DNA of 58,795 bases, the filler included, from Sphacelaria rigidula (Eukaryota), in assembly GCA_964200075.2 (NCBI GenBank). It is 8 parts of 8 records of this genome, joined end to end, with 100 filler letters (N's around TTAATTAATTAA, not from the genome) between each part and the next. Parts side by side here need not be neighbours in the genome. Positions count along the whole stretch, not along the records: positions 1 to 7,262 come from CAXNAA020015719.1; 7 more parts are not named here. One strand, given 5' to 3'. This document shows, piece by piece, positions 1-51,590 of the stretch (position 1 is its first letter; each line of letters opens with the position of its first letter). Both the position numbers and the translations under genes were made by a program. The notes under the pieces are model-generated. The model was not told the DNA's origin. It did not search any database and was given only the letters and a program-made list of their open reading frames with translations.

Positions 1-67
1 ACGAAGGCAAGAAACAAAAGGGTCCCCCCCCCCCCCCCTCCCTCTCTACCCCTCCTACACACACACT

Positions 68-217
68 TGCTCTGTCTCGCAAGGGGTGCGTAGTCAATAG
101 TCAAACAACTAAGGCAAGCAACAAATGAGTACGGTGTCCGTCCCCACACACTTGCCCCACCTCGCGAGGGATGCGTGGTCAATGGTCGAACAACTAAGGC
201 AAGCAAAAAATGGGCAC
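68..217 (+). repeat. Two tandem copies of the LINE-3'-end structured module (family A)
   Basis: 68-132 and 153-217 share the core ctcGNRAggg(a/g)tgcgt(a/g)gtcaat(a/g)gtc(a/g)aacaactaaggcaagcaa. The same module occurs at ~7240-7262 (cut by the gap), ~19189-19252 (-) and ~51376-51434 (-). Confidence 0.85.
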
Positions 218-249
218 GCCCCCCCCTTCACACACTCGAAAATTTCTTC

Positions 250-1900
250 CATTATTTCGTCTGCCCCTGCCGCTCTTGTATTCTTGATCTTAGCTACACA
301 CTCGTTTGTTCCCTCTCTTGTCAACTCTGCAATTCATTCAAACCCCGATCTTCCTGCTTTGATGCCTCTACATTTGCCTCTGCCCACGCGTCGATTTCTT
401 GCCCTAGCTCCGCGTCGACCTTCTTGCTAGCCGTCAGTGTTCCTACTCAACGGTGGAGCTCTACCAGTGCTTCTCTGTTCCTTTTCAAACTATCGACCAT
501 CCTACCGTTTTGTGCTTCTCGTGCGGCTGTGTATGCCTCTCCTGTCCGATTGCCCAGTATCCCTTGAATCCCTACCCAGACTTACGTCACCCTGCCATCG
601 ACGTCTTCATTCTTTTTTTGAACAACATGTTTCCACGTTCCCTTTCAATTCTTCTCGGCAATCGTTTTTGCCTCTACACTAGCGTTCGCATATTCCTCCC
701 ACATTGCAGTAGTTTTCCTCCGTGAATATGGTGCTTGGACCTCTACCCTTACTCTTACAGAGTCTTTTACCTCCTCGTCCCACCGTTTGACTACTCTATT
801 GCAAATGGTCAGTTTCTCCCCTATAACTTTGCTTGCTGCGGTCTTGACCGATTGTTCCCATCCTTTGGTCATCTCCGCACCCGCCCGATCCCTTGCCATT
901 TGGATCGGATCTGTACCTACATTTCCCTGCAACGGAAAGTTTTATTGCATTTTTCTTCATCTTTTCGTAGAAGTTTTGCTGTTTTTATTTTATTTCACGT
1001 TTATTTATTATCCATTCGTGCAGTTTCCTACCCCGCGTGTTCTTATAACTCTCGCCTGTTGGCTACCTTTCCATACTAAGCAATATCCGTAGCTCCTACG
1101 TCCGCTGTGCATACCTTGATTGATTGATTGATGTATACATGTACTTCCGTTTCCTTACTGCGTCCATATTTTACCATTTTACAGTCAAGAATGGAGCTTC
1201 CTGCCGTTGGTACGCATGGTCTTGCCCATGGCAGATCTGGCTTTTTACTCTTATCGTTCAGTCATTTCATCTCGTTATTCTTACGGAACTACCATATTTC
1301 TACCCCATCTGTCTTCTTTGTTTGCCCCTGTTGCCCGGTATCATCATTCGGTCAGCTTGCTTTTCCAATCCTTGCATCATCATCTCCGTATAACATCACT
1401 TTTCCCTGCCCTTTCTACTCTTGTACATCTGCCCCTATCTCTCCGAACTCCTTTTGCTTAGCTCTTGCCGTAGTTTTCCACCCTGGGGGCATGCAGGTCT
1501 TTGAGAAAAAGACCCGTCCCCCGCTCTCTTGATATCCTTATCCATATGTTCTCGTCGATTTGTTCGTCTTCATCACTTCTACTATGTGAGACAGGCATTC
1601 CTCAACTAAGAGTTCTACTTCCCCCTCTCACCTATTCCAGCCTCCCTGTCCCTTCTTCTGTTTCCCTATCCACGCGTACTCTCCAACTTTGCATCCTACG
1701 TCCGCCTCAATGTTACTCCGTGACTCTTGGATTCCCACCATATCAAGGTCGCGCTCACTCACTTGTTGAGCTATTTCTGGTGTTTTGCGATCTTCCGTGG
1801 CGAATCCGCACACGTTCCACGACCCTTTTGTCAGCTTCTTTTTCGAATCACCACCTACTCTCCTTTTGTCTATTGGTCTCTATCCGTCACTCCAGCTGCT
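250..1900 (-). mobile_element. Degenerate non-LTR retrotransposon (LINE) remnant: APE endonuclease plus linker
   Basis: The minus strand reads GSWNVCGFATEDRK...LDMVGIQES (endonuclease N-terminal motifs) from ~1820. ORF 645-932 reads KTAASKVIGEKL...VKRWDEEVK, typical of the EN-RT linker. Many stops and frameshifts; ends approximate. Confidence 0.7.
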
Positions 1901-2059
1901 TTGCACTTCAAGGCCTTTACGGGGCATGTCATATTTGCCGGGTGCTTACTTAGCGTCTTCACGTGTTGTGTGTTCACGACGGTAACTGATGGGTGCTGTC
2001 GAATCGGGGCTTTCAAAAGGTTCCAACTACGACAAAAAGATAAACCGTTGAGGGAATGC

Positions 2060-2385
2060 TGTTGATAATGGTAACGATCATGAAACGATGATGATACCAC
2101 CATGATACGATCATTATCACGATAACAACCCTCCCGTAGAACCATGAGCAAAAGAACAATCAATATCGTTATGATGGAAACGAAAAGTAGTCGATGGTCA
2201 TCACTACGGAAGTGAACAGTGAATAGCAATGGAGATGAATTAGAATGGGAGTGAAGTATGGAAAAGAATGATGATAATGATGGTAGCAGTAGACAATAAT
2301 TACACAAAAAGTAACGATAACAGTACTGATTACAAGGTTTATAACAACGACTATAGGTGAAATTTATAGTAATGATCGTAACAGG
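2060..2385. repeat. Degenerate (RAT/AAT/AAC)n low-complexity tract
   Basis: Run of gat/aat/aac/agt triplets. Confidence 0.6.
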
Positions 2386-3089
2386 CAGTATTTACCTAGG
2401 CCACCGAATATCCCATGTCCTCAAGGTGCCATCTGCACATCCTGTAGCGACAGCGTAGCTTCGATACTTGTCCCAGTCCCCGCTCAGGACTTCTCGCCCG
2501 CCGTGTGCGCCGAACTTTCGATACGGAGGGTAACGAAAGCAGACATAACACAATATAACATATCAGAACATGACAGATCCGATCACGTCACATCCCATCA
2601 GAACACGATGATGGGGCTTCGAATCCTCGTGGTCGCAATTGAATGGAAAACTGAAATCACGTAACGTTGGCCGTGCGAGCTTATCTTGCGATGCGGCGGA
2701 AAAGCGGGCGGAACACGTGACAGAAGCGACATTGGACATACATATGGCTGCAATCGCAATGCCATGCATTGCAAAGCAAGAAGGAAATCACGTAGGAATG
2801 GCTGTGGGCGCTTAGCTTTTAATTCGAGGCAAAAAATTGAACAGAACATAACAGTTCCTATCTGAGTATTTTCCTTTTCTCCTACTTTGAGATGAGTCCG
2901 TAGTCTGAATTGAACAGCACATTTCTCCCACGGGGGCACTGTGCCTGCTCTACATTGTAGTAGTACATCATTGGATGATGACCATCAGCACTCCCGCAGG
3001 GCGTTGACTTCCGTCGAATTGCGTTTGTTTTGCGCCCACGTTCTCACGCTTTCCAGCCATGACAAAGGAAACGAGGAAATAAACTACTA

Positions 3090-6000
3090 CAGCCACTCTA
3101 GATCGTGCAGCCGTGCATCCTAATCGCCGCCCGACTGGGGATGATTTTGTCGGGGTGAGCTAACTAAGAGTGACATGGCCTCCAGACTAGCCTGTGTGTC
3201 GTGTCCTGTGTATCGTGTCAGTGATGGTGTTATTCACCGTCTACGCAGAGGATCATGCCGGCAGTGCCGACCTCCGGGCTCAATCCTGCAGCTGCCGAGT
3301 TTTACCCTGTACTGAGAGCCAAACTGAACCCCGCACCTGCAGAGATTTACCCAGCGCTGGGACAATGCCACGGAAAACACGTTGATGAAGATGAGAAACG
3401 TGTGAGCAAGTACCAGATTCGGCGGACTGCAAGGACTGGAGCTAGCGACCGATGTGGGCTGCGAGGGCTGCACACTCGCGCGGGATCATATTATAAGGCA
3501 AGTGCCATGACCGACGTGGCTACGAAAAGTCGAAAAAAAAAACTAAAACTCGCACGTGAGACAACAAGGCGAAACAGACCGATAAGGAGAACAGAACATA
3601 TAGAATGACGTGTGAACATAGAGAAGACTTGAGCTAGACCGCGTAGACGGGAGCTCGAAGTGGCGACCTACAATGTCCGTACTCTGTCTCTTACGGGAAA
3701 GAACGAAGCTGGCCATGCTGAGGTGGTTCTGCAAAAGTGACAGGCGGGGGGATGTGACGCCATCGGACTGCAGGAGACACGAAGAGCGGGCTGAACCCTG
3801 TTCTTTGCGGCTGGATATCGTGTCTTCTGCTGCGGGACGGGACGGAAGGGAGCAAGGAAAGGACTGGACAACATGGGGTCGGGTTGGTGGTCAAGGAGTC
3901 GATCATCAAGAAGGCGACGTGGACTCAGGCACTCATCAGCGAACGCCTCATGTCGACGACTTTTAACCTCGCAGGCAAATCAGGGGCTGCTACGTTTGTA
4001 GTTGCCTATGCCCCTACAGATACATCAACGTCAAGAGAAGAGTGATACATGTTCTGGACAGGTTTGGACACCGTTGTGCACTAAGTCCCTAGCGAACATC
4101 ACCTGTTTATTTTAATGGACGCTAACGCTAGGACTGGGGTACGAACAGACGAGGAGGAATGTAAAATATTGAGGGCATACGGCTGGGATTCCCGCACCAA
4201 CGACAACAATGGCACACCTCTCTCCTCTCCACGACAACTTGCAGGTGACAGCAGGCTTGCCCCAGCCAAAAAGTGCTTTTGCATCCACAGGGAAACCACA
4301 TCGCCTTTGCTTAGCGGTATTGCGAATCGACACGCGGACGAAGAGAAATTGACTACATCTTCGTACGGCGAGATCATCACCGGCTTATTCGCATTGTCAC
4401 CGCCCACATTCAGCCACCCAACTCGTCGGACTCTGACCACAATATCGTACGCGCCTCACTGCGGCTCCTTGGTCGCTTCGACACAACAGACCTGAGCAAA
4501 TCTCAATCGGGCGTAAACCGATCGACAGGTGGGCAATGATGAATCCTGGCACCGATAGACGCGAGCAATTCACCCAGCTCATCATCAGCAAGCTTAAACA
4601 AGATAGACCAGGCGATTCAGCCAGTACACTGGCTGCGAACTTTGCCGACGTACTCCTGAGTGCCGCCGAAAAGGTGGTAGGTGCCTCGTCTGACTCGAAA
4701 GCCACGTATACCGGGGTGGTTTGAGGATGCTGCCATCCGGATGGATTTCGAATTGGCCCAGAATGAGAGGGAAAGGGCGAGATCGACAGTGCAACTGGGA
4801 CTATCGAGAGGTAAAGCTGCATGGCGCACATAGCGAACAGCGTGCAAAAAAGTCAAATAAGCGATCTGCATTGGGGTGGACAGGTACTGGATGTGCACGC
4901 TCGAGGGTTGGAGGAGTATATTTGAGTTGAGGACATGAGGGGATGGTACAGATATCTGAACGAAGGGCGGAGGCTGTCGGGACAAGTAGAGAGCGAGCGA
5001 TACATTCGAGACGAGGACGGGAACAAACTGGGAGAGAAAGGCCCAATCAGTGAGAAATGAGAATGGTAGTTCGCCACATTCCTGAACGCCATGCCGGCAG
5101 CCACCGACCGAGCCGTCATCTAGAATTGCGCAACGGCCGAGTGAGATTGAGGGGGCTCTGAGGGCTATGGTGAAGGGCAAAGCGACGGGACCGGGCGGTC
5201 CACCTGCTGAAATCCTGAAGCTTGGACTGAGCGGTGAAGCTTCGAAGATTGTGCGGCACTTTCACGACATCGGCACTGAGGTATGGACATCTGGTGAGGT
5301 GCCGCAAGGGTGGAACGCTGCCACTATCAAAGTGCTACATGACAAGAAGTAAAGGACGAAGTGTGGTGACTACAGGTGCATCTGACTCGTGGCACATGGT
5401 GCTAAAGCCCTCAAAATCGTGGCCAATAGGCTCGGCCATTTTTGTGAGGCAACAAATGTCTTATCGGGAAAGCAATGCAGGTTCCGGCGCTAACGATCGA
5501 CCGCCGACATGATGTTCGTGGTACAGAAATTGGGACGGGCGAGCAGTGTCCCACTAAAGATGTGCTTCATCGACCTGTAGAAGGCCTACGATACCGTAGA
5601 CCACCCGCCCCCGTGGGAAGTGCTTGCACGATTCAGGGTCCTGCCGCGAACGATCACGATCATCCGTTTGTGTCACGATCGCAAGTGAGCTGCGGTACAG
5701 CTGGATGGTGGCGAACTATCAGCGTGGTTCCACGTCTGCCCGGGACTCAGATACGTCTGCGTTTCGTCCCCGTTGTCGTTCAACATCTTCGGCGCAGCCT
5801 TTGTCGACGTGATGGTGCAGCGGTTGGCGGCGGACCCAGCCATCGTCTCAGACTTGGTTTTTCTAGATGATACGCCAAACGGTGACGATGGTGAACGTCT
5901 GGAAGAAAAGCCGCTGGAGAAGGTACGGCACGCAGTGTGGGCGATGCTTTATGCGAATGACGTCGGCATAGTTGCGAAGGCCCTAGATGGGCCTGCTAGA

Positions 6001-7262
6001 ATGGTGGATATGACTGTAGTGACCTGCTAGGAGTTCGGATTGACGATGCCGAAGAGCAAGGCAAAGTCCATACCCCCGTGGTCAGTATCCAGCTTCAGAG
6101 ACCGCCCTGCACACCAGCGCGGCCGGTCAACGGCATACGCAGACGGCCGAGTTTGTTCACCTTGGTGATGCTGTCAGCGCGGATACGAAAAGTCTCATCG
6201 AAGTCAATCGCCGCGTTAGCGCGGCGTGGGCACGTCTCCGAAAATATAGCCCCCAACTCTGCGATCGACACAACTCCCATCTATCCTTCAAAGTCGGGCT
6301 GCATAACGCGAAGGCGGCGGAAGCTCTGCTGTACGAATATGTCACACAGGCGTTACGTTCTGAGGACTTTATAACAGTCTGCGCACTGCCCACCACCAGC
6401 TTTTGCTACGAGTGGTCGGATTCGGCAGGAAATATCGAATGGGCTGCAAGACTCTCTCGTACACAGCTGTGCTCGAGATGACCAACTGCAAATGTATCGA
6501 GGCGACCATCCGCAGGCGTCGACTAGCTCTGGTTCGCGGGAGACCTTGTCCGGCAGGACGAAACACGTCTCTCCGAATGCACGGCCACGAACGGTTAGCC
6601 GCCCAAGGGCCCAAAACGGCTGGTCGCCCCCGCAAACACTGGGGGGATAACCTCCAGGGCAACGTAGGTGCACTAGAGGCCCTTCCACGCAAAGGGGCGC
6701 GACGGAAATGCTTCGTCTGCGGTGTAGAGGTTAATGACGCACACCATTGGGTTAATGTGGCGAAGATCACAGGCAAATGGCATCTTGGGGTCGAGAAAGG
6801 AGCGGAACAGTTCGTCAAAGCGGGACACAAAGACGAGCGAGAACCGGACCGCTCACAAACGAGAGCTTGCTGCGTCGAGGGCTGCCAATCGGAGAACTGT
6901 CCTCTCTAGCACAACAACAGCAGCGGGTCGCGAGGAATCAAAGATGGAAATGAACGATAGAGTGACCCGCTTTGCACCCGAGTAGGAATGAATGCGAGAA
7001 GCTGGCCTAACACAGAAAGTGACGGACCACTGTCAATTCCTATCGGTCGTCGATTTCGTCCTCGGTCGGTGGTGTTGTGCTGTTTATGTTGCTCCCTGAT
7101 TCGTGTTCGTACCTTCTCTCCTGCACTGTATCCATTGGATTCCATCACTTCTGCTGTCTCCTCCTCTGTTTTCTATCTACCCCCCCCCCTCATCTCTATA
7201 CGCCAGAATGTTGGAGGTTTCTCTATTAGGAGTAGGAACGGTGCTCCGTCTCGAAAGGGATG
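3090..7262 (+). mobile_element. RTE-like LINE, near full length, inactivated (single APE-RT ORF with many stops and frameshifts)
   Basis: The ORF starts at ATG 3255. EN motifs: VATYNVRTLS (3660), GLQETRR, VVAYAPTD, LMDANARTG. RT motifs: KATGPGGPPAEILKLG, SGEVPQGWNAATIKVLH, CFIDL*KAYDTVDH, MLYANDVGIV. The C-terminal ATIRRRRL/GRPRKHW region is RTE-like. The 3' end runs into the gap. Confidence 0.88.
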
Positions 7263-7362
7263 NNNNNNNNNNNNNNNNNNNNNNNNNNNNNNNNNNNNNN
7301 NNNNNNTTAATTAATTAANNNNNNNNNNNNNNNNNNNNNNNNNNNNNNNNNNNNNNNNNNNN
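7263..7362. other. Artificial contig spacer
   Basis: N44-TTAATTAATTAA-N44. Identical spacers at 14625-14724, 21987-22086, 29349-29448, 36711-36810, 44073-44172 and 51435-51534. Confidence 0.99.
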
Positions 7363-9099: not shown

Positions 9100-10494
9100 T
9101 CAAATAGAGTATGGGCCATGCCAAGGACTGTAAAGTTTAGGGTTGGGCCCGGCAGTTTCATGGTATGGACGATGGATCAGCACTTGATCGCCTGGTTTGA
9201 AACCGGGAAAGGACAGTTTCTCGTTCTCAACCGCTTGCTTATCCGCTCGCTCTTTAAGATTGCGGCGGGCTAACTCGTAGGCTAGTTGCAAGTTGTGGAC
9301 AGTTTGACGGGAGTAATCAAGACGTGACTGAGGTGCGGTTGTGACTGGGACTCCGAGAATGAGATCGACAGGGAGGACAGCTGCGCAACCGAACATTAAA
9401 TAGTGGGGAGTCTCTTCGAGCGTGGACGAGTATGCAGTGTTATGCGCTAATTGGTCAAAAGGAAGTAACTCGGCCCAATGATCACAAGCCAAGTTGCTGT
9501 ACATGGCGAGCATATTGTGGACAGTGCTGTGGACACGCTCCAAGACTGAATTTCCTTGCGGACGGTATGCAGCAGTACGTGTTTTCTTGTAACCAAAGAT
9601 AGACTGCAATTCTTGGATTAAAGAGTTTTCGAATTCGCTTCCGCGATCTGAGTGGAGGGTTTCCGGTGGACTGAAAATTGAAAAAACACGTTCGACAAGT
9701 TTTCGGGCGACAGTGGGAGCTTCTTTGTTCTTGATGGCGATCAAGACGACATATCTAGTTAGGTGATCGATCACTGACAGGATGAACCGGTTTCCTCCTG
9801 ACATGGTTTTATACTCCACTAGATCGACGGCTACGCATTGGAACGAGCGTTTGATAGGACGGTGCCCGACAGGTAAAGTGGGTGGACGGTGAGAGGTTTT
9901 ACGATGCTGACAAGATACGCATTTGTTGACATGTTGTACATCGGTGTGCATTGTGGGCCACCAGTATCGATCACGTACTTTGTCAAATGTACCCTTGAAA
10001 GCTAAGTGACCCCCCGATGAGGGTAAGTCATGACAAGCATTAATGACAAGTTTCCGCAATGACTCGGGTACTACCAGCTGATCGCGAAAATCGTCGCGTC
10101 GACGTAGGTGGTTGGGACGATATGACGACACAATAATCCGTTGTAGAGAAAAAAAATTACTCATACTGAATTTCGATTGTTGGGGTGAGACAGGAGCTGA
10201 TTGAGGCCCATTGAGATAGTCAAAATACGGACCAAATTCCTGCTTCTGTTGATCAAGGAGTTTGACAGAGTCAACAACAGGGAAAACAGACACTGCGTTC
10301 GTGAAAAGTTCACGGTCACTCTCGACAGGTTCTATCTCGTTCAAGTTGTAAGATGACACTTCATATTCACGAGGCGGGCGGGTGAAATGGCTAATTATCT
10401 GGCACGTTTCGACAATTTGCTGCCAGTCGTGGTTCGGAGGGGAGTTCGTCTCCGTTGATGGGTATGAATAGACGAGACAGTGTATCGGGGACAA
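9100..10494 (-). pseudogene. Gypsy integrase
   Basis: HHCC finger (CHDLPSSGGHL...CVSC), DDE core (VAVDLVE / LHSDRGSEF / VLERVH) and GPY motif (PWHGPY). Confidence 0.93.
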
Positions 10495-10531
10495 TGTTGA
10501 GTTTACCCGGGACGTGTTTGACGGTGAAGTC

Positions 10532-11818
10532 TTAATTTTGAAGTGCGATGGCCCAACGGGTGAGCATGTTGGAGGTATCTTGCATATAGTATAAGTAGGT
10601 CAGAGCTTGGTGGTCGGTATGACGGGTGAAATGTCGACCCCAGAGATAAGTTCTCCAATGGATGAAGGACCATACAACTGCAAGACATTCTTTCATGGTT
10701 GGGCTATAGTGACGTTGACTCGACGAAAAGCGTTCGCTGTAATACGCCACTATATCGACTTCTTTTCCGTCGGCATCACCTTTGCGAGGCTGAGCCAAAA
10801 AAACACCTATTCCGGTTTCTGAAGAATCAGTGTGAACAACGAATTTTCTCGAGAAATCAGGAAAGTGTAGGACAGGAGGAGAGACAAGCACTTGCTTGGT
10901 TTTCGCCAAGGCTGCGTCTTGGTTAGGACCCCATGCTGATTTGAAAGTTCGTCTGTGAGCAAAAGTCTTGCGAGTGAGATCGACTAGTGGGGCCGTGAGT
11001 TCAGCATAATCTTTGACAAAACCACGGACAAAATTGAGCATGCCTAAGACGAACCGCAGGTCTTTGATGCATGTAGGCGTTGGCAGCTTTTGAATGGCTT
11101 CGATGCGATCAGTACTGACAGAAATACCTTCAGCGGAAATGACATGGCCAAGATATTCAATTTTCTTTTGGCCGAATTGAACTTTCGAAGGTTCAAGGGT
11201 TAAACCGGCTGCCTGTAGAGCAGAGAACATTCGCTCCAAAGATTGAAGGTGAGCTTCGAATGTGGGACTGATACAGATCACGTCATCCATGAACGCAAGA
11301 ACACCATAATTTTGACCGAGATGACCGAGAGCCGTAGACATGGTTTGCTGAAATAACCAAGGCGCGTTACAGACTCCAAACGGCACATGTTGAAAACAGT
11401 ACTTGCCGATCGGGGTGACGAATGCAGTCCGATCGATGTGTGCCGTCGCCACGGGGATCTGCCAGAACGCTGAGAGGACGTCGCAGACCGAGATGTATCG
11501 AGCTTCTCCGACTTCGTCCAGGCAGGCGTCAAGACTGGGCATAGGCCAACTTTTACGAACAATGTGGCGGTTGAGGGTGTGACGGTAATCAACATAGAAG
11601 CGCGGGCTGCCATTGCGTTTGGCGACAATAGTACATGGACTACCCCAAGGACTAGGCCGTTCTTCTATGATGTCCCATTCCAGCATGTCTTTCACGCATT
11701 TGTCACTGACTTCAGACGTAAGTGGATTTGGACTGTACGGCTGTTTATCTACTGGACGGGTACCTGGTGGAACGGGAAAGGTTGCTGCTGCGATGGTGCA
11801 GCGACCTAATTCGGACAT
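10532..11818 (-). pseudogene. Gypsy reverse transcriptase + RNase H
   Basis: SPWGSPCTIVAK, PRFYVDYR, PFGVCNAP, FMDD and YLGHVIS; RNase H VHTDSS...ECLAVVW...TDHQAL...RWAIALQ. Confidence 0.95.
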
Positions 11819-11856
11819 AGATAATGAGAAGACGGGCCGAAATTTAGCGCAAAGAT

Positions 11857-12819
11857 CTAAGACGATGCTTGTTGGTCCGGGGTAAGCGTAGAATCATTGG
11901 ATGCTTTGGACAAGGGACCTTCAAGTTCATATCGTGCGCGACTGAGTTCTTTTGCTGATTGAGGGGTATTTGCGACGGCGTTGACACGCAATTGGTCTGG
12001 GGTGACGACTGAAACTGTCAACAAGTGACCGAGACATAAACCAGCAGGTAGGGCAACGCCATCTGAGGACGGGTTAGCGATTTGGACAGCTACCGATCCA
12101 TCAGATGCCTTCCAGGTGGATAGGGTACGTGCGACAATGACTTTCCTGAATGCAGTGAGACTTGGATCGTCTGTCAGTTCGTCGGGAGTAACAATTCGGG
12201 GTTCGACAACGACAGTACAATCTTGTGGAGGGAGACAATCGGTAAACGCTACAGCAAGCGCTTCGTGCATCCGTTTGACATCAATAGCTTCTGCGTCGCT
12301 GTGTATTGCAGCTACTGATGAAGGAGAGTCAGGTGACGCAGAACAAGCGTGGGTATGGACATTGGTATTTTTTCGGTGGACAGCGGGAATTGAGATACCA
12401 GTGGATGCGAAAGTCAGCGATTGATTTTTCCAATCGAGGACTGCACTCAATTCAGACATGACTTGGTTGTCTAAAAGAATGGAGTCGGGACCGAGAGATG
12501 GGACTACGAGTGCATTGATGGTACATGTAGCTCCACCTAAGGTTAATGAAAATTCAATAAACCCCAGGACATAAATGGGGGAACCGTTCGCTGCGTTAAG
12601 GGCCGCGGCTGCAGGGGGGACAGATTTGAGGGGAGTATTGCGGAGAGTGGGGTGGGATTGCACCCACTCCATCGACACAACAGATACATCAGTAGCAGTG
12701 TCGATAGTCACGTTATCAACGTGACAGTCATCGACGAGACCCGCAACGCGGACACGGCGAGACGAAAGAGAGAGAGAGAGAGAGACTTGGGTTTGTGCGC
12801 CAGCGAAGAGCTGTACCAC
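11857..12819 (-). pseudogene. Gypsy aspartic protease region
   Basis: VTIDTATDVSVVS (DTG-like site), AANGSPIYVLG flap and SILLDNQ. The frame appears shifted at the (GA)n tract at ~12767-12786. Confidence 0.75.
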
Positions 12820-13168
12820 ACTTCATCTTCGTTAATATCCTTTTCACCATGCTTCTCCAAACACAAGTGCTCACGAGTAAGTCGTGGCAGGCTACCGACA
12901 GGCACAGCTACATCAGACAAAGCGGAGACAGTTTGTACCACAGAGGTGCGTCGCTTGCGCGACTCGCATGCCGAAGGTAGCAGAGGATTACTGACAGCAT
13001 CTGAAGATGCAACGTCTACATCACGAACACGTTTTACACCCACTCTTGCTCTTGGTTGACACTGACAACTGCTACTGACGTGGAGAGGGATCTCTTCCTC
13101 TTCACGCCTGTACTGTCTAAAACAGCAGACGACCCAACTGAATCAGGCGCAACAACAGCAGGGCAATA

Positions 13169-14332
13169 TCACTCATCGGTATTTCCGTCATCAGGTGGCG
13201 GCGATGGCGATCGTTGAGTGGTCTTGCGTTTCTTCTCCGTCCGTTGACCTTGAAGTTGCTCCTTCTCGAAACGCTTACGCTGGTAACACGTGTCGTACGT
13301 GTGTCCTAATTTCTTCTTACACGGGGCCCACGTACACTTAAGGCGGCCCTTGCTTTTGCCTGAGGTGGGTGTCCCAGCGTTGTGGGGGTCGTTACCCCCC
13401 CGTGCTGCAGGACGGGAATGATTGATGTTGGGGAGGCGGTGGCCTTTCCCTGCGAACTGTTGACGGACAGCAGCACGGTTGGGAATTTGGGTGAAGGACA
13501 GAGCACTGGCAGTGACGCCACCGACAAGGCTTGCGGCCTCATGGCATCGAGCGCGGTCGACGGCTTCACGGAAGGAAGTGACTGGCTTTTCTGACAACTG
13601 TGGACATTGGATAGCTGTGGCGAGGCAGTTTTGCCACAAAATGACAGACAGTGCGGCCCACGGTGTGCGGCCGGGGGTGGCTCTTTCGACACTATGCTCG
13701 AATCGGTTGAGGACGGAGCGAAAGCGAAGTGCATAATTTTGCACTGACTCGTTTTTTTCCATTTTGAAAGAAGCGAGACGAAGGGCACACTCTTCTACAC
13801 TGTTGCTAGGCATTAACAAGTCTAACACAGCGTTTGACAAATCCTTCCAGTTGGAGGGAGGAGTGAATTAATCCGCTTTGTCAGAGGATTCAGTGTTGAC
13901 AGTGACAGTCCGCCAATTAATGCAGCCAGACATTAATTGCTCATACATGGAAGCAGCAGGACCATCGAGAATCGGGCTGAAATATTCGAAGACAACTTCA
14001 TCGCCATACGAAGGATCGTTGGGGCGTACAGACTGAGCCCGGAACCCTGCGACAGTTCTATACTGATTTAGGACAGATTGGACATCCACATCGCCTGAAT
14101 TTCCGACCTGTCCCCTACACACTGCAAGAAAGCGTAACCATGTCAGACCACGACATGTCGCAATCCGCCGACCCCCAAGATCCACCCTACGACCCACGTC
14201 AAGAGGACGAAGAAGAAGAGCAAGAAGCGTCAGCAGCCCCGTCCGTTCTCTGCGACGCGTCCGCACCCGTCCAAGACCTGGTTGCGACCATCGCTTGCGC
14301 CAATCCGGACCTCGATCCTTCCCTCCACTCAC
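13169..14332 (-). pseudogene. Gypsy gag with Cys/His knuckle, interrupted by an in-frame stop
   Basis: ORFs 13868-14332 and 13169-13840 share one frame with TAA at 13868-13870. Capsid-like MEKNESVQNYALRF motif; knuckle CTWAPCKKKLGHTYDTC. Confidence 0.75.
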
Positions 14333-14724
14333 TGCATCCTAAAGTTGACGCCAATATGGGTCACTACACAACAGAAGAATGCCGCCAGAAGGTTATGAGC
14401 CCTCGCCTCTCTGAGACAGCAGAGCGCTCTATCGATTAAGCTGTGACGGTGCGTTGAGGACAGGACAAGATCCCAGAAGAGGGTTGAGGTGTTGAGGGAG
14501 AGACGGGGGGCGAGCAGCGATGACCCGCACCTTGTCTCGGATGACAGACAGACCATAAACCAGTCAAGCTCACAGAATACGCTTGTGGTGTGGTGTACAG
14601 TCAAGCTCACAGAAGGGGAGCTTGNNNNNNNNNNNNNNNNNNNNNNNNNNNNNNNNNNNNNNNNNNNNTTAATTAATTAANNNNNNNNNNNNNNNNNNNN
14701 NNNNNNNNNNNNNNNNNNNNNNNN

Positions 14725-14782
<58 letters not shown>

Positions 14783-19079: not shown

Positions 19080-19524
19080 CTGTAGCGGGGCCGGAAAACC
19101 GCGTTCAAAATGGACACGGTACACGCCCAAATGAGCACCGACGGCGACAGACGGGGCGGAGCGGGGCGGGGCGAGGGGTGGAAGGGGCGTACTCATATAT
19201 TGCTTGTCTCAGTCGTTTGACTATTGATCACGTATCCCTGTCGAGACGCAGCACCGTTCGTACTCCTAATAGAGATATCTCCAGCATTTGGGCACTCATT
19301 ACGTTTCTTCCACACAATGCTGCGTCGAAAGCCGCTGATCGGAAATCCTGTCTGCCCCTATCAGGTTTTTTATTGTGCCCTTGGTCGGTGGCTCTGCGGT
19401 GACCCCTGGTGCGTATCCGTATTTGCTCTGCTGCCCTGAGATCTTTGGACTTCGTCACTTCTGTAATCTCCTTCCTCCCTGCTTTCCCTTTTCCCCGTAT
19501 TTCTCTCTTTATATATGTGTGTTC

Positions 19525-21373
19525 CACAGGAACCGTAGGTGAGGTACCGTACCGAGCGTATTCCCGGCATTTACCAGGGTATTCCATGCCGTGGTATGCG
19601 TAGGTATCGTAGGTATGAGTATTGATAATACCTGATTGAACGGGTACGGTGGGTATTGGTATCTTGAAATACCGTAGTATCGTAGGTATCGTAGGTATCG
19701 TAGGTATGACATATGAAAATACCTGATTGGACAGGTACGGTAGGTACTGGTATCTCGAAATACCGTGGTAGCGTGTATATCGTAGGTACGACATTTTCAA
19801 AATACCCGATTGGACCGGTATCGGTAGGGTATGAGATGTCCCAAATGCCAGTACCGGGTACCTGCCTTACCCTCTATACCGAATTCAAAATTGTCATCCG
19901 GCAATGCAGAGAAGCGTTCCAGGGCGTGTCTTGGCGAAAAAAATGTATAAAAAAATGTGGCAGTGGAATTGGTTTGAACGAAAATCGCACATTTTTGTCG
20001 AGTATGAATCGAATTCTCAAGCTTTCGATCGAAAAAAGACGGTGAAATTCGTGAAACGGTACGTGGTCACCGGTGCACAGTACAGACAGTCTGTACTGTC
20101 TGCACTGCTTGCAAGCAGTGCGTCTCGAGTGCGCGTGTGCGTGTTTCGTACAGTAGGATATGAAAGAGAAGCGGGCAACGTTCAATGCAGACAGCCCAGG
20201 ACTACCAGTTCTCCCTGCTTACAATTCGACGTGAAAAGGACTTCAACAACGTGCAGCTTTATACTGCCTGCACTGTTCGTGAGCGTATACGCAACTCGGT
20301 TGCTCACCGTACCACGCAGTTCCGTCGCTCATCCTACCATGGAAGAAGATACGCAAGTTTTCGCTGACGAAAAATAAACAAAGCATACCCAACTACTGCA
20401 GGGTATCTGTGCCTGTGCGCTCAACTCGTACTCGATGCTGCAGGGTTGGTATGGTAGCTGAGAATGAGTTGGATGGAGTTAGCATGGCTCTGTGAACGGG
20501 TGGTATCTGGCGTGGTGGTCTGCAAGATAGGAGTCAAGTGCCGCTTCGTGCCTTTCGACCGTATGTTTTCGATCGAAAAAGCTGAGCTTATTCGTTTTGT
20601 AGTTTCTCTCCGCGCGCCACTAATTTCAAACTGGAGTTGAAGCCTCCGAAGAACGGAAATGCGGTGGACTGATCAGGTCGAGAAATCAAAAATCGACCGC
20701 ACTTCAGACTGCATAATAATGACTTCATTCAAATCGATTCAAACACGCAAATCAGGGGGAATCTGGGTATATATCACTTGCGCAAACAAGACGTACCTGG
20801 TCCGACAACTTCTGGCCTTTGCATAACAATTTGGGACCAGCTGCTGCACCGTGGGGAGTGTATCGCGTCTGGTATTACCGTGTATACCCCCGGTATTTAC
20901 CGGGATATCCTATACCGTGGTATGCGTGGGTATTGTAGGTATGAGTTTTGAAAATATCCGATTGAGCGGGTACGGTAGGTACTGGTATCTCGAAATACGG
21001 TGGTATCGTAGGTATCGTAGGTATTGTAGGTATGAGATATGAAATTACCTGCTTGAGCGGGTACGGTAGGTACTGGTATCTCGAAATACCGCGGTATCGT
21101 AGGTATCGTAGGTACGACATTTAGAAATATCCGATTGGGCGGGTACCATAGGTATTGAAATCTCGACATACCGTGGTATCGTGGGTACCGTAGGTATGAG
21201 TTTTGAAAATACCCGATCGAGCGGGTACGGTAGGTATTGAAATCTCGAAATACCGTGGTATCGTGGGTATCGTAGGTATGGCATTTGAAAATAACCGATT
21301 GGACCGGTATCGGTAGGGTATGAGATGTCCCAACTACCGGTACCGGATACCTACCTCACCTACGGTGCCTGTG
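19525..21373. mobile_element. Non-autonomous hAT-like DNA transposon
   Basis: TIRs CACAGG(A/C)ACCGTAGGTGAGGTA at both ends. Exact 8-bp TSD GTGTGTTC at 19517-19524 and 21374-21381. Subterminal GTATCGTAG arrays; no transposase ORF. Confidence 0.9.
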
Positions 21374-36189: not shown

Positions 36190-38362
36190 ATATTCATGGA
36201 AAATGCAAGCTGAACGCTAAATGCGTCAGAAGTGGCCGGTAATCCAACGAGTCATACAGTATCAACGGAAAAAACAAGCGTCACCTGCAAATGACGATTT
36301 GGGTCATGGAAAATGAACTATATTGCTAGTACATTTGTAGTCTGGGAGTGGTCGGTGTTGAGGTGATTTTGTTCCTCCGGAAAGCTCGCTCCACATCAGT
36401 AGATGGACAATCTTGTTGCACTAGCGAGTGTCCTGCCTCTGTCTGTGTCAGTCGGGAAGCACACGCCCCCGAGCTGCCACCCCACGTTTACCGTCATTGC
36501 GAAGATAACAAGACAAGAGCACGAACAGCAGCTATTGTGGCCGCTACACACCAACGTAACTGCAGCAACCCAAAAGTGCCAATCCCGCAACGCTTGCAAT
36601 TCGACAACGAAGCGGGGGATTGGACTGCGGTTTCTTGCGCGCGCTTCCCACACACTCAAGCTACGTCGACAAGTTTAGATTTAGCGTTAAAGCATAATAA
36701 CAACACACAANNNNNNNNNNNNNNNNNNNNNNNNNNNNNNNNNNNNNNNNNNNNTTAATTAATTAANNNNNNNNNNNNNNNNNNNNNNNNNNNNNNNNNN
36801 NNNNNNNNNNATCCTGCTGAGGTTGCTCGGCCCGAAGCCTACTGATTGTCTTGCATTTGGATGACAGCCTACAATGAGTTGCTTCATTTTCTGGTATCGT
36901 CACTTCCAGAGACAGCGACGACTGATACACTGCCTCATGGGTGCCTCACCGTTTAAACACTACGTGGTACGATCATCCCACGCCGCACGGCATGATCTCG
37001 CTCGATTATTACCAATAGTTATCGCAAAAAAACACAAGCGCGCAAAACGAAAAGGTAACCCGGTTGTCTGGCTTCCGCAGTAAGTGGCGTGTTTATAGCG
37101 TCATCGCCAACCGACGCCAACTCCATAGGGGGCCCGCCCCTACAACGCCCGAACGGAGCACGCCGAGTTCTTGCCGGACCAGGCTGGCAGGGGGGTGGGG
37201 TGTACTCATGATCATGCATGCCATAGTCATAAGAGGCAGGGGGGTGTGGGGGTATCGCATCATCACACATCTGCAGTATGGAGCAGCAGAGACTAACGAC
37301 GACGAGTGGAGGATGGGAACAAGTAAGCCAAGGCTGGCAGCAAGTGGGAATAAGAGCGCATAATTCTCATCTCCGCACCGAAACCACGCATGAAGTTGAC
37401 TCGCAAATCATGGTGTGCTTTGTATTTTGTGGTTTCACCGTTTGTTATCCTTGCTTTTCGGATGTCGTGGGATGAAACGACAAACCTTGGCGTATGTCCG
37501 CCCCCATCACTTCGAGCTGTGGTGGGCATATGTTACAGCATGTCCACAACGCTTTTCACCATGGAAATGGCAATTGGTAAGTAACTTGAAACATTTGTAC
37601 TATTTATACTACTATAGGGTGCAGAGTTCAATCGCGTAGTTAAGTTGTGTAAAATGGTGTGGGCATCTTTGTTATATTATTATACTAAAATTAGTGCAAA
37701 CTATAGCCGTTGACAACAAAACTCGAATAAACTGGATAACTGGCGCCCTCGTCGCCAGATCCACTTCAATTCCACTCCCACTTTAACGACGGCATTAACT
37801 GAGCCAGTGTACAGCCCTCCACCTATGGTCTAGTACGACGAAATGCTGCCGTCTTTCGTACGGCATCATAGCCGTCACTCTCCATGATTAAGCTCAGCAT
37901 CGGTCGCGGACGGTAAGCTTTGCACGGTCAAAATGCCATGTTTTGGCAAAAGAAATGCAGGAATAAACAGCGTGATAATCGGAATTGCCCTTTCGGACCT
38001 AAAGGTTCCTGGTAGATGACCCGCCGGTGCTGGGAAGACTACTCATTTTAGTGGTCTGATCCCCAGCTGGGAGTGTGGTGCCGCTGCGGTGGACAACAGC
38101 CACGCCGTCTTCTTTCCACAACGGCTATATTAGGACATCATGTACAAATCACGACAAAATGGACATCTACATACTTCGTATGCATATTCAGCGATGGCAA
38201 CAGTAGGGATAATATATTATTATGCCGTCCATTCTCATATCGATATATTACAGCGTATGGTTTTTGACCAAAATATTGCGCAGCTCTAACAGTACACTTT
38301 GCTACCGTGTTCAAAACTCGCTGAACAATTGTAGATGTTGATCGTCAAATGTTGATCCTCAC

Positions 38363-40966
38363 CGTGCTATAGTTGAGAAATGTTCCGCGTTCACAAGCGA
38401 AGACGTTGTCGTCGAAGGAGGTGCTGTCGGTCACATCGATGGATCCCACGTTAGAGATTGCCGGTCCTTCGTCTTCGGCGGAAGAATTCTCTACGAATGT
38501 GCAGTTGGATATGGATGCCGTGCCAGCGAGACTCAAAGCTCCTCCAGTTTGTGCAACGTTGCCGTGAAACAATGTATTGATGAACTTGTCATGACCTGCT
38601 CCGGTGTTCACCGCACCACCTGCTATAGTTGCACTGTTGCTGGAAAATTGACACCGGTCGAACGTGGTCGGAGCCACAAATTGATATTCCCTAACTGCCG
38701 TTCCGCTGCCTGTAATGGACACTGCTCCGCCTGTATTAGCAGAGTTTGAAGTGAACGTAACGTCGATGAATTGTGGCCCAACCCCTACACCTGCAACGAA
38801 CACTGCCCCTCCGGCAAAGTCAGCAGAATTCCGATCGAACGTCATGGCTTTCTCACCAAAACGTGTAGCTATCACGCCGACCAGTGCCATCGCCCCTCCA
38901 CCAGTCTTGCAGCTATTATTGACGAACGTGGTCAAGGCGTTGATGACGATAGACGACTCGATGTCTTCACTGTTCCTATTTGACGACGACAAGGAAACAG
39001 CACCTCCTGATGCACCCGCATCGTTGTTGCGGAAGATCGTGGTCGCTCCCCAGGATACACTGGAGCCGTGTTCGATAAGCACGGCTCCTCCCGCTCCATT
39101 TGCTGAATTGTTCGCAAACTCAGTCTCTGCTTCCCATGACGCATCAGAGCGATTCATCGTGAAAATGGCCCCACCTCCCCCGGAAGCGATATTGTTGAAG
39201 AAGAGTGTTTTCCCTGCCCACGAGACAGCGGCTTCATTGAAGATGTTCAAAGCGCCGCCTGAAACAGCTGCATGATTGCCAATAAACGACGTCTCTGTTT
39301 CCCAAAATGCATATGCGTTCTCGCTGGTGATTACGGCACCTCCATAAGTAGCATTGTTGTCCAAGAAGGACGTTTTCCCTCGCCACAATGCCGCGGAATT
39401 CTTGAAGATGTCCAAAGCGCCCCCAGAAAGAGTTGCAGAATTGCCGATAAACGACGTCTCTGCCTCCCAAGATGCGTTGGAGCCGTCGCTAGTGATCACA
39501 GCACCCCCATTTTCAGCGCTGTTGTCGGAGAAAGACGTTTTTCCTTGCCACGATAGTGCCGAATTCTTAAATATATTTAAAGCGCCCCCAGAGTGAATTG
39601 CAGCATTGCCGAAAAAGGACGTTTCTGCCTCCCAAGATACATGGGAGCCCTCGCCGGTGATCACCGCACCCCCGTTCTCAGCGCTATTGTTGAAGAAGCG
39701 CGTTTTTCCTTTCCACGATATATCGGATTTGTTGAAAATATCCAAAGCGCCTCCCGACCAAGTTGCGACATTGCCGATAAACGACGTCTCTGCCTCCCAG
39801 GATACACGGGAGCCGTGAGACGAAAGGGCACCCCCATAGACACCGTTGTTGTTTAAAAAGGACGTTTTCCCTGTCCAAGATGCAGTAGCGCCGTCTAAAA
39901 GGTAGACAGCACCCCCATTGCTTTTACCTGCGATATTACCGGCGAAGACAGTCCTCGCCTGCCACGATACCGAGGCGGCGTTGACTTGTATCGCGCCGGC
40001 GTGCAGTGTAGCATTGTTGTCGATGAACCTCGTCATCGCCGTCCACGATGCGCTCGAACCGTCGTAGACGTCCAACCCAGCTCCACCGCCATCGGACGGT
40101 GCCTGATTGCCGGAGAACACAGTCTCCGCTTCCCAGGATATCTTGGAGTTGTTTTCGACATGCACGCCTCCACCCCACTGCCCGCTGTTGCGGGAGAACG
40201 ACGTCGTCGCTTCCCACGATACCGTCGATTCATTGTACACGTTCAAGGCGCCCCCTGTAAAGACTGCAGTATTCCCATCAAACGATGTCTCCGCTTCCCA
40301 AGAGACACTGGAGTTATTTTCTACGTAGAGTGCACCTCCCTGGTAAGCAGTGTTGTTAGAGAACGACGTATTTCCTCGCCATGAGACGCTTGAGCTGTCA
40401 CTAATAAACGCCCCACCGCCACCACCAGACGCGTTATTGCCGACGAACGTTGTCAGACCGCTCCACGAAACAGCCGAGTTGTCGGCGACATAGAGAGCTC
40501 CGCCATCTCCCTTGACGGCGACGTTGTCGATGAAAGAGGTCCGATAGAACGACATGCTTGAGCGATGACAAACGATCGCCCCGCCAGAGGTCGCATTGCC
40601 GTTGCTGATGATCATGTTGCTCACATTCAAGAACGCGTTTTCGATGTTGAAAAGTCGATTACTTCCACTCCCCTCCATCCCGGCTGCCGAATCACTTCCA
40701 GCTATTTCGAGGGAAGTTCCACCCGCTACATGGATTTCGCGCTCTACGACGACGTTTCCTGTCCATTTGACATTGAACACCCCACCAGAGCAGTTTACTG
40801 CGACAGCCAGGGCTGCGGCTGATGCTGTATCCTCAACGTCCCAGACATGCGAGGCATCGCTGCTGCTGCAAGGAGCGGAAGCTACGCCAGTGCAGAATAT
40901 CCCGAGCAGAAGTGTGACAATCCAGCCCTTCCGTCTTCTGATCAGATGTCGCTGATCAGGTGGCAT
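38363..40966 (-). CDS. Secreted/surface PMP-like (GGA[I/L/V]...FxxN) right-handed beta-helix repeat protein; large coding exon, gene probably continues
   Basis: Within the intact ORF 38345-41074. ATG 40966 precedes a basic + hydrophobic signal (RRRKGWIVTLLLGIFCTGVASA). About 18 SW-x3-T-x-F-x2-N-x-A-x2-4-GGA units. Likely GT donor (GTGAGG) at 38361-62 after FACERGTFLNYST. Confidence 0.9.
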
Positions 40967-42725
40967 TCCGCCGAACGGCGGTTGATTGTTGACACGCCGA
41001 CCACGTGGCGGAAGGTACCTGAAACACGGCACGATACACGCGTTGGTCGGCGAACAACTTGCACTGAGAACCATCTGTGTACCTGTGAAGGCATAGCCTG
41101 GTTAGATATTTCAGGAGAATGAGCTCCTTGTTGGTAGTGTAAGGTCACCACTTGGTGTCAATGTGACGTCGCTCGAGGGAGATTAAAAAAAAAAACGAGA
41201 TACAGGCAAACATAAAAGTAATCTGACTCCAATTTCAGATGGTAGAACTCCAAGAAGGTTGAATAATAAGTTCTGCGCTGCCACACGAGGGAGCAGCGTT
41301 TGACGCCTCGACAATTGAGATGCGCGTGCAGTGAGCGTGTCCATCCCTTCATTTGAAGATGGAAGCGTGAATATTTCAGTGCAACTTGAGCTGAATTCAG
41401 TCGAAAATATATGCGCTTCTCGTCGAAATTCAGGGAGCAGGAAGAAAGTCGAAGGAGGAGGAAGGAAGTTGTCGAGGGTGGGGTTGGTCTAGTATTCGGC
41501 TTACCCTTTTATAGAAAACATGGGGCTTCCTCGCTCGAGGGTTTTCTTAGGATTCAAAGGAGACGTGCACCGCGAGCGAGATTTCGTTGAAGGGCACGCA
41601 TTCCTTGGGGATCTGCATTTTGCGTCCGCCCTCGGCTGGTGTTTGGACCACCAGAAAAAAAACAAATGCAGACACCAATATACGCAAATTCGCCGTGTAT
41701 ACCCGTTCTTCGTAACACCATGGCAAGAACTGCGATAGTGTACGTTACCGCGGAGCGAGGCGAAATGTAGTCAGTCAGACAGATCTCATGTAGGACATCA
41801 TTGAGGATTGCTCCGGCTGCAGCAGCAGCGCAGGGCCGGCCCGAACTCCATCACAGTAGTATAACTAGGTATAGCCATCTGTGGCCACCATAGGCTGCGC
41901 GCAACAAACCTCTTGCACAGGAAAAAAACTGAATATTCTCGAGAGGGTAATACAGCAAGAAAATGATCAGACAGATGTTGGGAACAGGGTATGGCTTTGA
42001 CGTCGTGTCCCGAGTTGAATCCAAGTTAATAGGTCAAAGCCCATGGTGTGGTGAGGCGTCAACGTTTGCGGTGACACAACGCGAGTGTCATTCGACCTTG
42101 GACTGCGAACCCCCTGTGCGAATCACCCGAACACACCCGCGGATAGCCGATCATAAAATTGAGGATAGAGCTTACCATCAATATTAGAACCTTCGTATCC
42201 ACACCAATTCTTCAAAATGTCGTCATGTTCCTTCACTGGTAGCCATCAACAACTGCTACATGGCACACAAATTTGGATTCCGATAACCGAACTTTGGGGG
42301 CTTGGGTAATGAAAACATAAACAAAACTCCTTTTATGTTGACCTTCCTCCTGTGTAACCCCCGGTCGTGCGCTCACATATACCGACAGGGGTAGACTGGC
42401 GTCCAGAATCAATGAGGTGAGAGCACACACGCAAGAAACGGCCTAAGGAACCGGGAAAAAAATGGATCGAAAAAGGGACAAAGCTGTATCAAAATGAGGC
42501 CACTTTCAGCAGCAAAAACCGGCTGCACAAAAAAACACATCCTGAAATAATTCGTGTGATTCAGCACCAGACTTCTTCTTCGATTAAGATCACCTACTGA
42601 TCTCCAACGCCAGTCACTCCGACGGTTTTGTAGCTAAGTACCTCCTTTCTGTTGGCGATCAACACTCCCAATGACAACATACGATGTATTCTATAGCCCC
42701 CAATCCGTACTAGCTGAGGGTAATA

Positions 42726-51534: not shown

Positions 51535-51590
51535 ACATACATACATACATACATACATACATACATACATACATACATACATACATACAT
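51535..51590. repeat. (ACAT)n microsatellite
   Basis: Directly visible at the contig start. Confidence 0.95.

Follow-up and report, generated by a model that had tools for sequence, protein, structure and literature searches.

Candidate PAM2 peptides at the N-terminus of a probable RTE-type LINE from the brown alga Sphacelaria rigidula

How the protein of a long interspersed nuclear element (LINE) finds its own RNA, the question of cis-preference, is an old one, for which a direct contact between L1 ORF2p and PABPC1, a poly(A)-binding protein (PABP), was proposed in 2025 (PMC7617806). In human L1, the PIE segment of ORF2p (residues 272-297) is reported to contact RRM1 of PABPC1, in a model of co-translational capture, cis-preference and ribonucleoprotein (RNP) assembly; the terms PAM2 and MLLE each have 0 occurrences in the available text of that paper (PMC7617806). 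RNA viruses possess validated peptides that bind PABC, the MLLE domain of PABP, including those of Hendra and Nipah virus P/V/C, HCoV-229E N and Berne virus N (residues 2-17) (PMC10132805). In the brown alga Ectocarpus, the elements RTE-1_Ec32 and RTE-2_Ec32, of 4.0-4.6 kb, are annotated as 'single EN-RT ORF; (CAA)n 3'', that is, as one open reading frame (ORF) for endonuclease (EN) and reverse transcriptase (RT) (PMC12477816). Here, we describe a LINE copy in a 58,795-nt stretch of Sphacelaria rigidula DNA (the whole of which is called the window) whose reading frame starts with two PAM2-like motifs, and we consider whether its relatives could dock host PABP through them.

The PAM2 motif spans 12 residues, with a hydrophobic residue, usually Leu, at position 3, P or V at position 5 and an invariant Ala at position 7 (PMC2854688). 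Glu is favoured at position 9, the invariant Phe at position 10 is the most important residue, and position 12 is usually Pro; positions 1, 2, 6, 8 and 11 either play no part in binding or show no conservation (Kozlov and Gehring 2010, PMC2854688).

PAM2-like motifs in the window copy and its relatives

Translation of the window confirmed the arrangement reported in the initial annotation, with both motifs in the frame of the ATG at 3255 and in frame with the endonuclease start ELEVATYNVRTLS at 3651, 396 nt on (Table 1). The frame begins MPAVPTSGLNPAAAEFYPVLRAKLNPAPAEIYPALGQ (longer stretch MPAVPTSGLNPAAAEFYPVLRAKLNPAPAEIYPALGQCHGKHVD). Within 3255-3651 only two TGA lesions were present, as first described; beyond 3651 that description no longer held and the copy was badly broken, with frame changes near 3845, 4345 and 4470 and many stops. 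The copy at 3255 is a decayed pseudogene. The strict core LNPxAxEFxP occurred once when the full 58,795 nt were translated in six frames, compared to an expectation of 0.0 from 200 residue shuffles (0.005 per window for a looser pattern), and it is unlikely that the motifs arose by chance. Pfam PAM2 (PF07145, gathering cut-off 20 bits) matched residues 5-18 of the window ORF with E = 0.0044 and 17.1 bits. The two motif copies had been said to differ mostly at third codon positions, and across their 12 codons we counted 6 synonymous differences over 9.3 sites and 5 non-synonymous differences over 26.7 sites (pS 0.64, pN 0.19; Fisher p = 0.012). Because the copies differ mainly at synonymous sites, it is the peptide and not the DNA that they share.

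A phmmer search with the 117-aa N-terminus of the window ORF against 1.84 billion representatives (E <= 1e-3) returned 20 matches, 19 of which were short ORF fragments, here termed family A. One match, P0017, was rejected as a spurious or unrelated repeat protein. The family A alignment gave the consensus MxxVLxSRLNPAAAEFxPxLGxKLNPAAAEFYPxLRHCHGKHVDGDETRVSxYQIRR, in which two canonical cores, 15 residues apart, stand just after a conserved Met. Most family A fragments begin at this same Met, and in relatives the first motif follows it at a distance of 3-8 residues. Five relatives had a longer upstream ORF, and three of these kept Met at the position equivalent to 3255 (P0014, P0015 and P0019; not P0013 or P0018). 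The motif is likely to sit at the extreme N-terminus of the protein.

A profile search (E <= 0.01, range covered 34-448 aa) gave 181 matches, 120 of them listed, and all counts for subfamily B that follow are among the matches listed. Subfamily B comprised 117 fragments from long ENA contigs, with a column consensus of 80-99%. Its consensus starts MGFKLNPDAVEFFP and contains a single motif, which aligns with the second motif of family A; from there the frame continues without a break through to the APE endonuclease and past it, in fragments of up to 417-420 residues. Subfamily B is young and was recently active, since its 90%-identity clusters hold up to 149 members. The motif region was present in 87 of the 117 listed fragments, and 58 of the 81 located motifs matched ..L.(P/V).A..F.P. 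In P0137, a more diverged fragment, both motifs kept hydrophobic-3, P5, A7, E9, F10 and P12, with D at position 4. The conservation across family members on which the initial annotation depended was found in family A, subfamily B and P0137; the motifs are conserved in two diverged lineages at least, and probably in three.

The variation among these lineages provides what we regard as the strongest argument for a PAM2 peptide. Taken by majority residue, the three versions of the motif (family A motifs 1 and 2 and the subfamily B motif) read S-R-L-N-P-A-A-A-E-F-Y-P, T-K-L-N-P-A-A-A-E-F-Y-P and F-K-L-N-P-D-A-V-E-F-F-P, which share L3, N4, P5, A7, E9, F10 and P12 and differ only at positions 1, 2, 6, 8 and 11. 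All three, together with window motif 1, fit the 12-residue PAM2 pattern. In the LINE peptide, then, the positions under constraint are those at which PAM2 makes contact, and the positions free to vary are those at which it does not.

In the relatives, the N-terminal extension and the endonuclease shared one unbroken ORF. The initial annotation had asked whether the frame is open from the Met through both enzyme domains; from motif to endonuclease it was unbroken in P0004, P0006, P0022, P0039 and others. An unbroken EN-to-RT ORF was not seen in the profile search of 34-448 aa, and a search for longer homologues with P0006 gave no match at E <= 0.001 among 3,377 candidates. Pfam identified Exo_endo_phos in P0039 (residues 117-368, E = 8.5e-13) and RVT_1 in P0021 (E = 2.8e-12). 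In the suggested Pfam scan, PAM2 was the most frequent family match among the relatives, found at E <= 1 in 7 of 20 family A members (best E = 3.4e-4) and in 56 of 85 scanned subfamily B members, and most of these matches were below the cut-off, which only P0002 attained (20.0 bits). On the 12 broken ORF pieces of the window LINE, Pfam recognized 0 families, because the pieces are too broken.

Searches of other collections were negative within their scope. Metagenome contigs gave 80 pattern matches with alignment A2 and 64 with P0039, and viral contigs gave 9 with P0039, none of them confirmed. The best ESM Atlas score for P0039 residues 1-116 was 0.86, to unnamed clusters, and PDB sequence searches with P0002 and with alignment A2 found nothing relevant.

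Weighing PABP docking against other readings

We propose, with a probability of roughly 60%, that the motifs dock the MLLE domain of host cytoplasmic PABP. Active ancestors would have carried an N-terminal extension of ~115-130 residues, whose first 15-35 residues would present one (subfamily B) or two (family A, window copy) canonical PAM2 peptides. These peptides would leave the ribosome first and, because they are translated first, could seize PABP co-translationally, on the element's own mRNA. Such a capture would favour RNP assembly in cis and possibly translation and stability, and neighbouring PABPs could each occupy one of the two sites, which stand 15 residues apart. The precedents of L1 ORF2p and the RNA viruses make such docking plausible; the analysis shows the motif, the pattern of its conservation, its place behind the start codon and the way it is joined to the endonuclease, and MLLE binding and all of its downstream consequences are what we infer. 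Capture of the motif from a host gene, which the initial annotation had raised, found no support; a 12-residue motif can arise de novo, and by alignment the second copy in family A looks like an internal 15-codon duplication. A fuller version, which we hold only tentatively, is that brown-alga RTE-type LINEs, without an encoded poly(A) tail, independently evolved a co-translational, MLLE-capturing PAM2 head, duplicated in one lineage and convergent with the PIE-RRM1 contact of L1 ORF2p. If this is true, direct PABP docking would be a general need of LINE cis-preference and not a peculiarity of mammalian L1.

Several observations weigh against PABP docking. Of the two PAM2-like motifs first described, motif 1 fits the definition, and window motif 2 fails at both invariant positions (A7 to P and F10 to I), which are restored only in the family consensus; motif 2 of this copy would therefore not bind alone. 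Family A copies are generally decayed: the definition still holds for only 7 of the 19 first motifs and for 5 of the 20 second ones. The Pfam scores of the window and of each subfamily B protein whose score was read (e.g. P0022, 15.9 bits) are below the 20-bit cut-off. The N-terminal extension is also conserved outside the motif, including VSKxQIR, with ~35-43% identity between family A and subfamily B, and the motif is therefore not the sole constrained part. The gene caller permits alternative starts, and in some subfamily B fragments the called ORF already begins 5-70 residues before the Met. As the species is known for P0021 only, what look like separate lineages may be subfamilies within a single genome or a few. 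AlphaFold2 modelled P0039 (30 sequences) poorly throughout, the endonuclease domain included, with a mean pLDDT of 43.8; in this model residues 1-66 were without secondary structure and a low-confidence helix occupied residues 67-89. Finally, a CAA-type repeat appears to take the place of poly(A) at the end of the element, and the presence of PABP on its RNA is therefore an assumption that depends on post-transcriptional polyadenylation.

The most serious of the alternatives, which we nevertheless consider rather unlikely, is that the N-terminal peptide is real and selected and its partner is not cytoplasmic PABP. The partner might be a different MLLE-type domain, like those of UBR5-like ligases or of fungal transport proteins of the Rrm4 type, or an unrelated one, or the peptide might belong to a nucleic-acid-binding module together with VSKxQIR and the basic stretch. 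Conservation of the whole 115-130 residue extension between A and B and the mostly sub-threshold Pfam scores would suit such a partner, as would the existence outside PABP of MLLE domains with their own PAM2-like ligands (PMC11572963; UBR5). However, all PABPC1 MLLE contact positions are retained in the LINE peptide and variation is confined to non-contact ones, and the core is near that of PABC ligands with experimental validation, the Hendra virus peptide among them (PMC10132805).

The remaining alternatives do without a functional peptide. Constraint could act on the nucleic acid, through an internal promoter, 5' RNA structure or the context of the translation start, with the PAM2-like reading as a by-product; LINE 5' ends often contain internal promoters, and our codon-level evidence is confined to the two motifs of the window itself. 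Yet those two motifs share a peptide despite 6 synonymous differences, and between A and B the non-contact residues change while the contact residues are kept, a sorting that nucleotide constraint would not produce, which makes this explanation improbable. Least probable of all, and highly improbable, is that the likeness to PAM2 arose by chance in a leader that is untranslated or decayed, with real elements starting at a downstream Met. The window copy is a pseudogene, and 30 of the 117 listed subfamily B fragments start at MSKQQ, past the motif; but in these M stands where VSKQQ has V, as if the gene caller had picked an alternative start, and the 87 others have the motif region behind the conserved Met. 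Nor would chance account for a core expected ~0 times per window, or for its recurrence in diverged lineages. Docking of PABP is thus the reading that we prefer.

Other features of the N-terminal extension were also considered. The block VSKYQIRR (VSKQQIRY in subfamily B) was conserved between both LINE lineages to the same degree as the PAM2 core and had no family match. A Lys/Arg-rich stretch ahead of the endonuclease, present in relatives too, may possibly serve in nucleic-acid binding or nuclear import. N-myristoylation of the MG start of subfamily B was rejected, as under the rules for that motif an F next to the G and a P in position 6 count against modification, and family A has no G2. 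A zinc knuckle at CHGKH was likewise rejected, its Cys/His residues not being retained in subfamily B.

Element type, abundance and other features of the window

The window consists of eight 7,262-nt pieces, separated by spacers of the form N44-TTAATTAATTAA-N44, and the LINE copy lies within piece 1 (1-7262). The stretch from 3255 to ~6924 is a decayed copy of an abundant LINE of brown-alga type with what appears to be a single EN-RT frame, in which EN and RT are collinear on the plus strand. A self-BLAST of the 58,795-nt window found no further copy of the element. The best named match of the RT was a partial protein of Sphacelaria rigidula, at 66% identity, and one of the public runs that contain this DNA bears the label 'algae metagenome'. 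The initial annotation had called the element RTE-like, and it probably does belong to the RTE clade; this is plausible from the apparently single EN-RT frame and the CAA-like tail and is provisional, resting as it does on architecture and tail type. The 15-nt CAA-like remnant directly after the stop is probably the 3' tail, known from this one decayed copy.

Table 1. Coordinates of features in the 58,795-nt window
Feature	Position	Strand	Remarks
ATG, start of LINE ORF	3255..3257	+	In-frame stop at 3222-3224, 10 codons upstream
PAM2-like motif 1, SGLNPAAAEFYP	3273..3308	+	Intact by refined definition (hydrophobic-3, P/V-5, A-7, F-10, P-12)
PAM2-like motif 2, AKLNPAPAEIYP	3318..3353	+	Decayed; family consensus TKLNPAAAEFYP; aligns with single motif of subfamily B
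Conserved block VSKYQIRR	3402..3425	+	VSKQQIRY in subfamily B
Lys/Arg-rich stretch KSRKKKLKLARETTRRNRPIRR	3525..3590	+	Ahead of endonuclease; present in relatives too
Two in-frame TGA lesions	3606-3608, 3630-3632	+	Aligned residues in P0004: R, K
APE-type endonuclease domain	3651..4512	+	tblastn of P0039, P0107 and P0006; frame changes near 3845 and 4345, and stops
Reverse transcriptase domain	5470..6432	+	tblastn of P0021, 63% identity over 182 aa; frame changes
C-terminal region of LINE frame	6433..6909	+	Ends with TAG 6907-6909
CAA-like simple-repeat remnant CACAACAACAGCAGC	6910..6924	+	15 nt, directly after stop
Spacers	7263-7362, 14625-14724, then each 7,362 nt		Adjoining pieces need not be genome neighbours
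Ty3/Gypsy integrase with H2C2 zinc domain	9100-10599	minus	
Ty3/Gypsy RT-RNase H	10532-11893	minus	
Ty3/Gypsy gag	13169-13867	minus	

The LINE is highly repeated in the source organism. Around 15,000 contigs of the public run X1 align to 2600-7262 at >= 80% likeness, and summed X1 depth, ~78 in unique flank, was 3,258 in the motif bin and rose in the 3' half to as much as 29,700. Repeat depth falls at the tail, from 27,375 (6812-6967) to 643 (6968-7123). Just upstream of the LINE ORF, 2912-3067 had an X1 depth of 14,915 compared to 410 at 3068-3223, and is a repeat in its own right or else a portion of the LINE 5' leader that many copies share. Where other LINE copies in X1 differed from the window copy (2600-7262), transitions dominated (132 each for A>G and G>A, 107 for C>T and 97 for T>C; 21-43 for each transversion). 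At the first TGA lesion P0004 has Arg, which would fit CpG decay.

Elsewhere in the window, an extremely abundant short repeat occupies 7207-7262, with a counterpart of 89% identity at 19234-19288 on the minus strand; its summed X1 depth is ~3.1 million against ~78 in unique flank, and the loose ends of hundreds of contigs begin at 7201-7208. A Ty3/Gypsy-type long terminal repeat retrotransposon with long open frames occupies 9100-13867 on the minus strand. Also on the minus strand, 38345-41101 holds a 918-residue open frame rich in Chlam_PMP repeats (E = 7.3e-33), inside which is a 165-nt tandem array at 39185-39814. Further tandem arrays, with units of 82-91 nt (or 164 nt) and GGTATCGTAGGTA-like sub-repeats, were found at 19593-19828 and 20912-21317. 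A run of 57 G (14725-14781) and an (ACAT)14 run (51535-51590) each stand directly at the start of a piece.

Comparison with described systems

By annotation, the only level at which the two were compared, the window element resembles Ectocarpus RTE-1 and RTE-2 in having what appears to be one EN-RT frame and a CAA-like remnant past the stop, and is at least 3.7 kb long (PMC12477816). PAM2 and PABP are absent from the available text and five supplements of that study of transposable elements, the consensus sequences of which may well hold the motif unnoticed (PMC12477816). Literature combining PAM2 or PABP-interacting motifs with retrotransposons, LINEs or transposable elements yielded no PAM2-bearing transposon protein, in agreement with the initial annotation, to which no such description was known.

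Should PABP docking prove true, an unrelated LINE clade in a distant eukaryote would lend independent evolutionary support to the ORF2p-PABPC1 idea, and PAM2 mimicry would extend from viruses to retrotransposons. The PAM2 head also offers a sequence signature for surveying LINE N-termini and a simple handle for testing, namely a 12-residue peptide with a known F-to-A control.

Cellular PAM2 ligands (Paip1, Paip2, eRF3, ataxin-2, PAN3 and Tob) have the same 12-residue motif with L3, P5, A7, E9, F10 and P12 (PMC2854688). Like the window copy, eRF3 has two motifs, but those of eRF3 overlap, whereas the LINE motifs are separate, 15 residues apart, so that two MLLE domains could bind together. The LINE motif further differs from the cellular ligands in heading a retrotransposon EN-RT polyprotein, and its binding to MLLE is a prediction.

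The nearest analogues are the contact of the L1 ORF2p PIE with PABPC1 and PAM2 mimicry by RNA viruses. Like L1 ORF2p, the replication protein of the algal LINE would bring a PABP-docking element of its own, situated close to the N-terminal half, a likeness of proposed function only (PMC7617806). The PIE lies in a linker after the endonuclease, contacts RRM1 and belongs to an element with a poly(A) tail, whereas the algal LINE is of another clade and would present a PAM2-type peptide, placed before the endonuclease, to MLLE (PMC7617806); the motif at residues 3-14 of P0039/P0022 precedes the endonuclease at 117-368, and the peptide is not a PIE of the L1 type. The RNA viruses are likewise genetic parasites that mimic a host PABP motif, one of them at the very N-terminus, and the Hendra core is much like that of family A (PMC10132805). 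They differ in having animal hosts, measured affinities and a crystal structure, whereas the algal LINE is endogenous and its motif is a candidate PABP ligand (PMC10132805). The known kinds to which the algal LINE comes closest are PAM2 ligands, PABP docking by a LINE protein, and PAM2 mimicry by genetic parasites.

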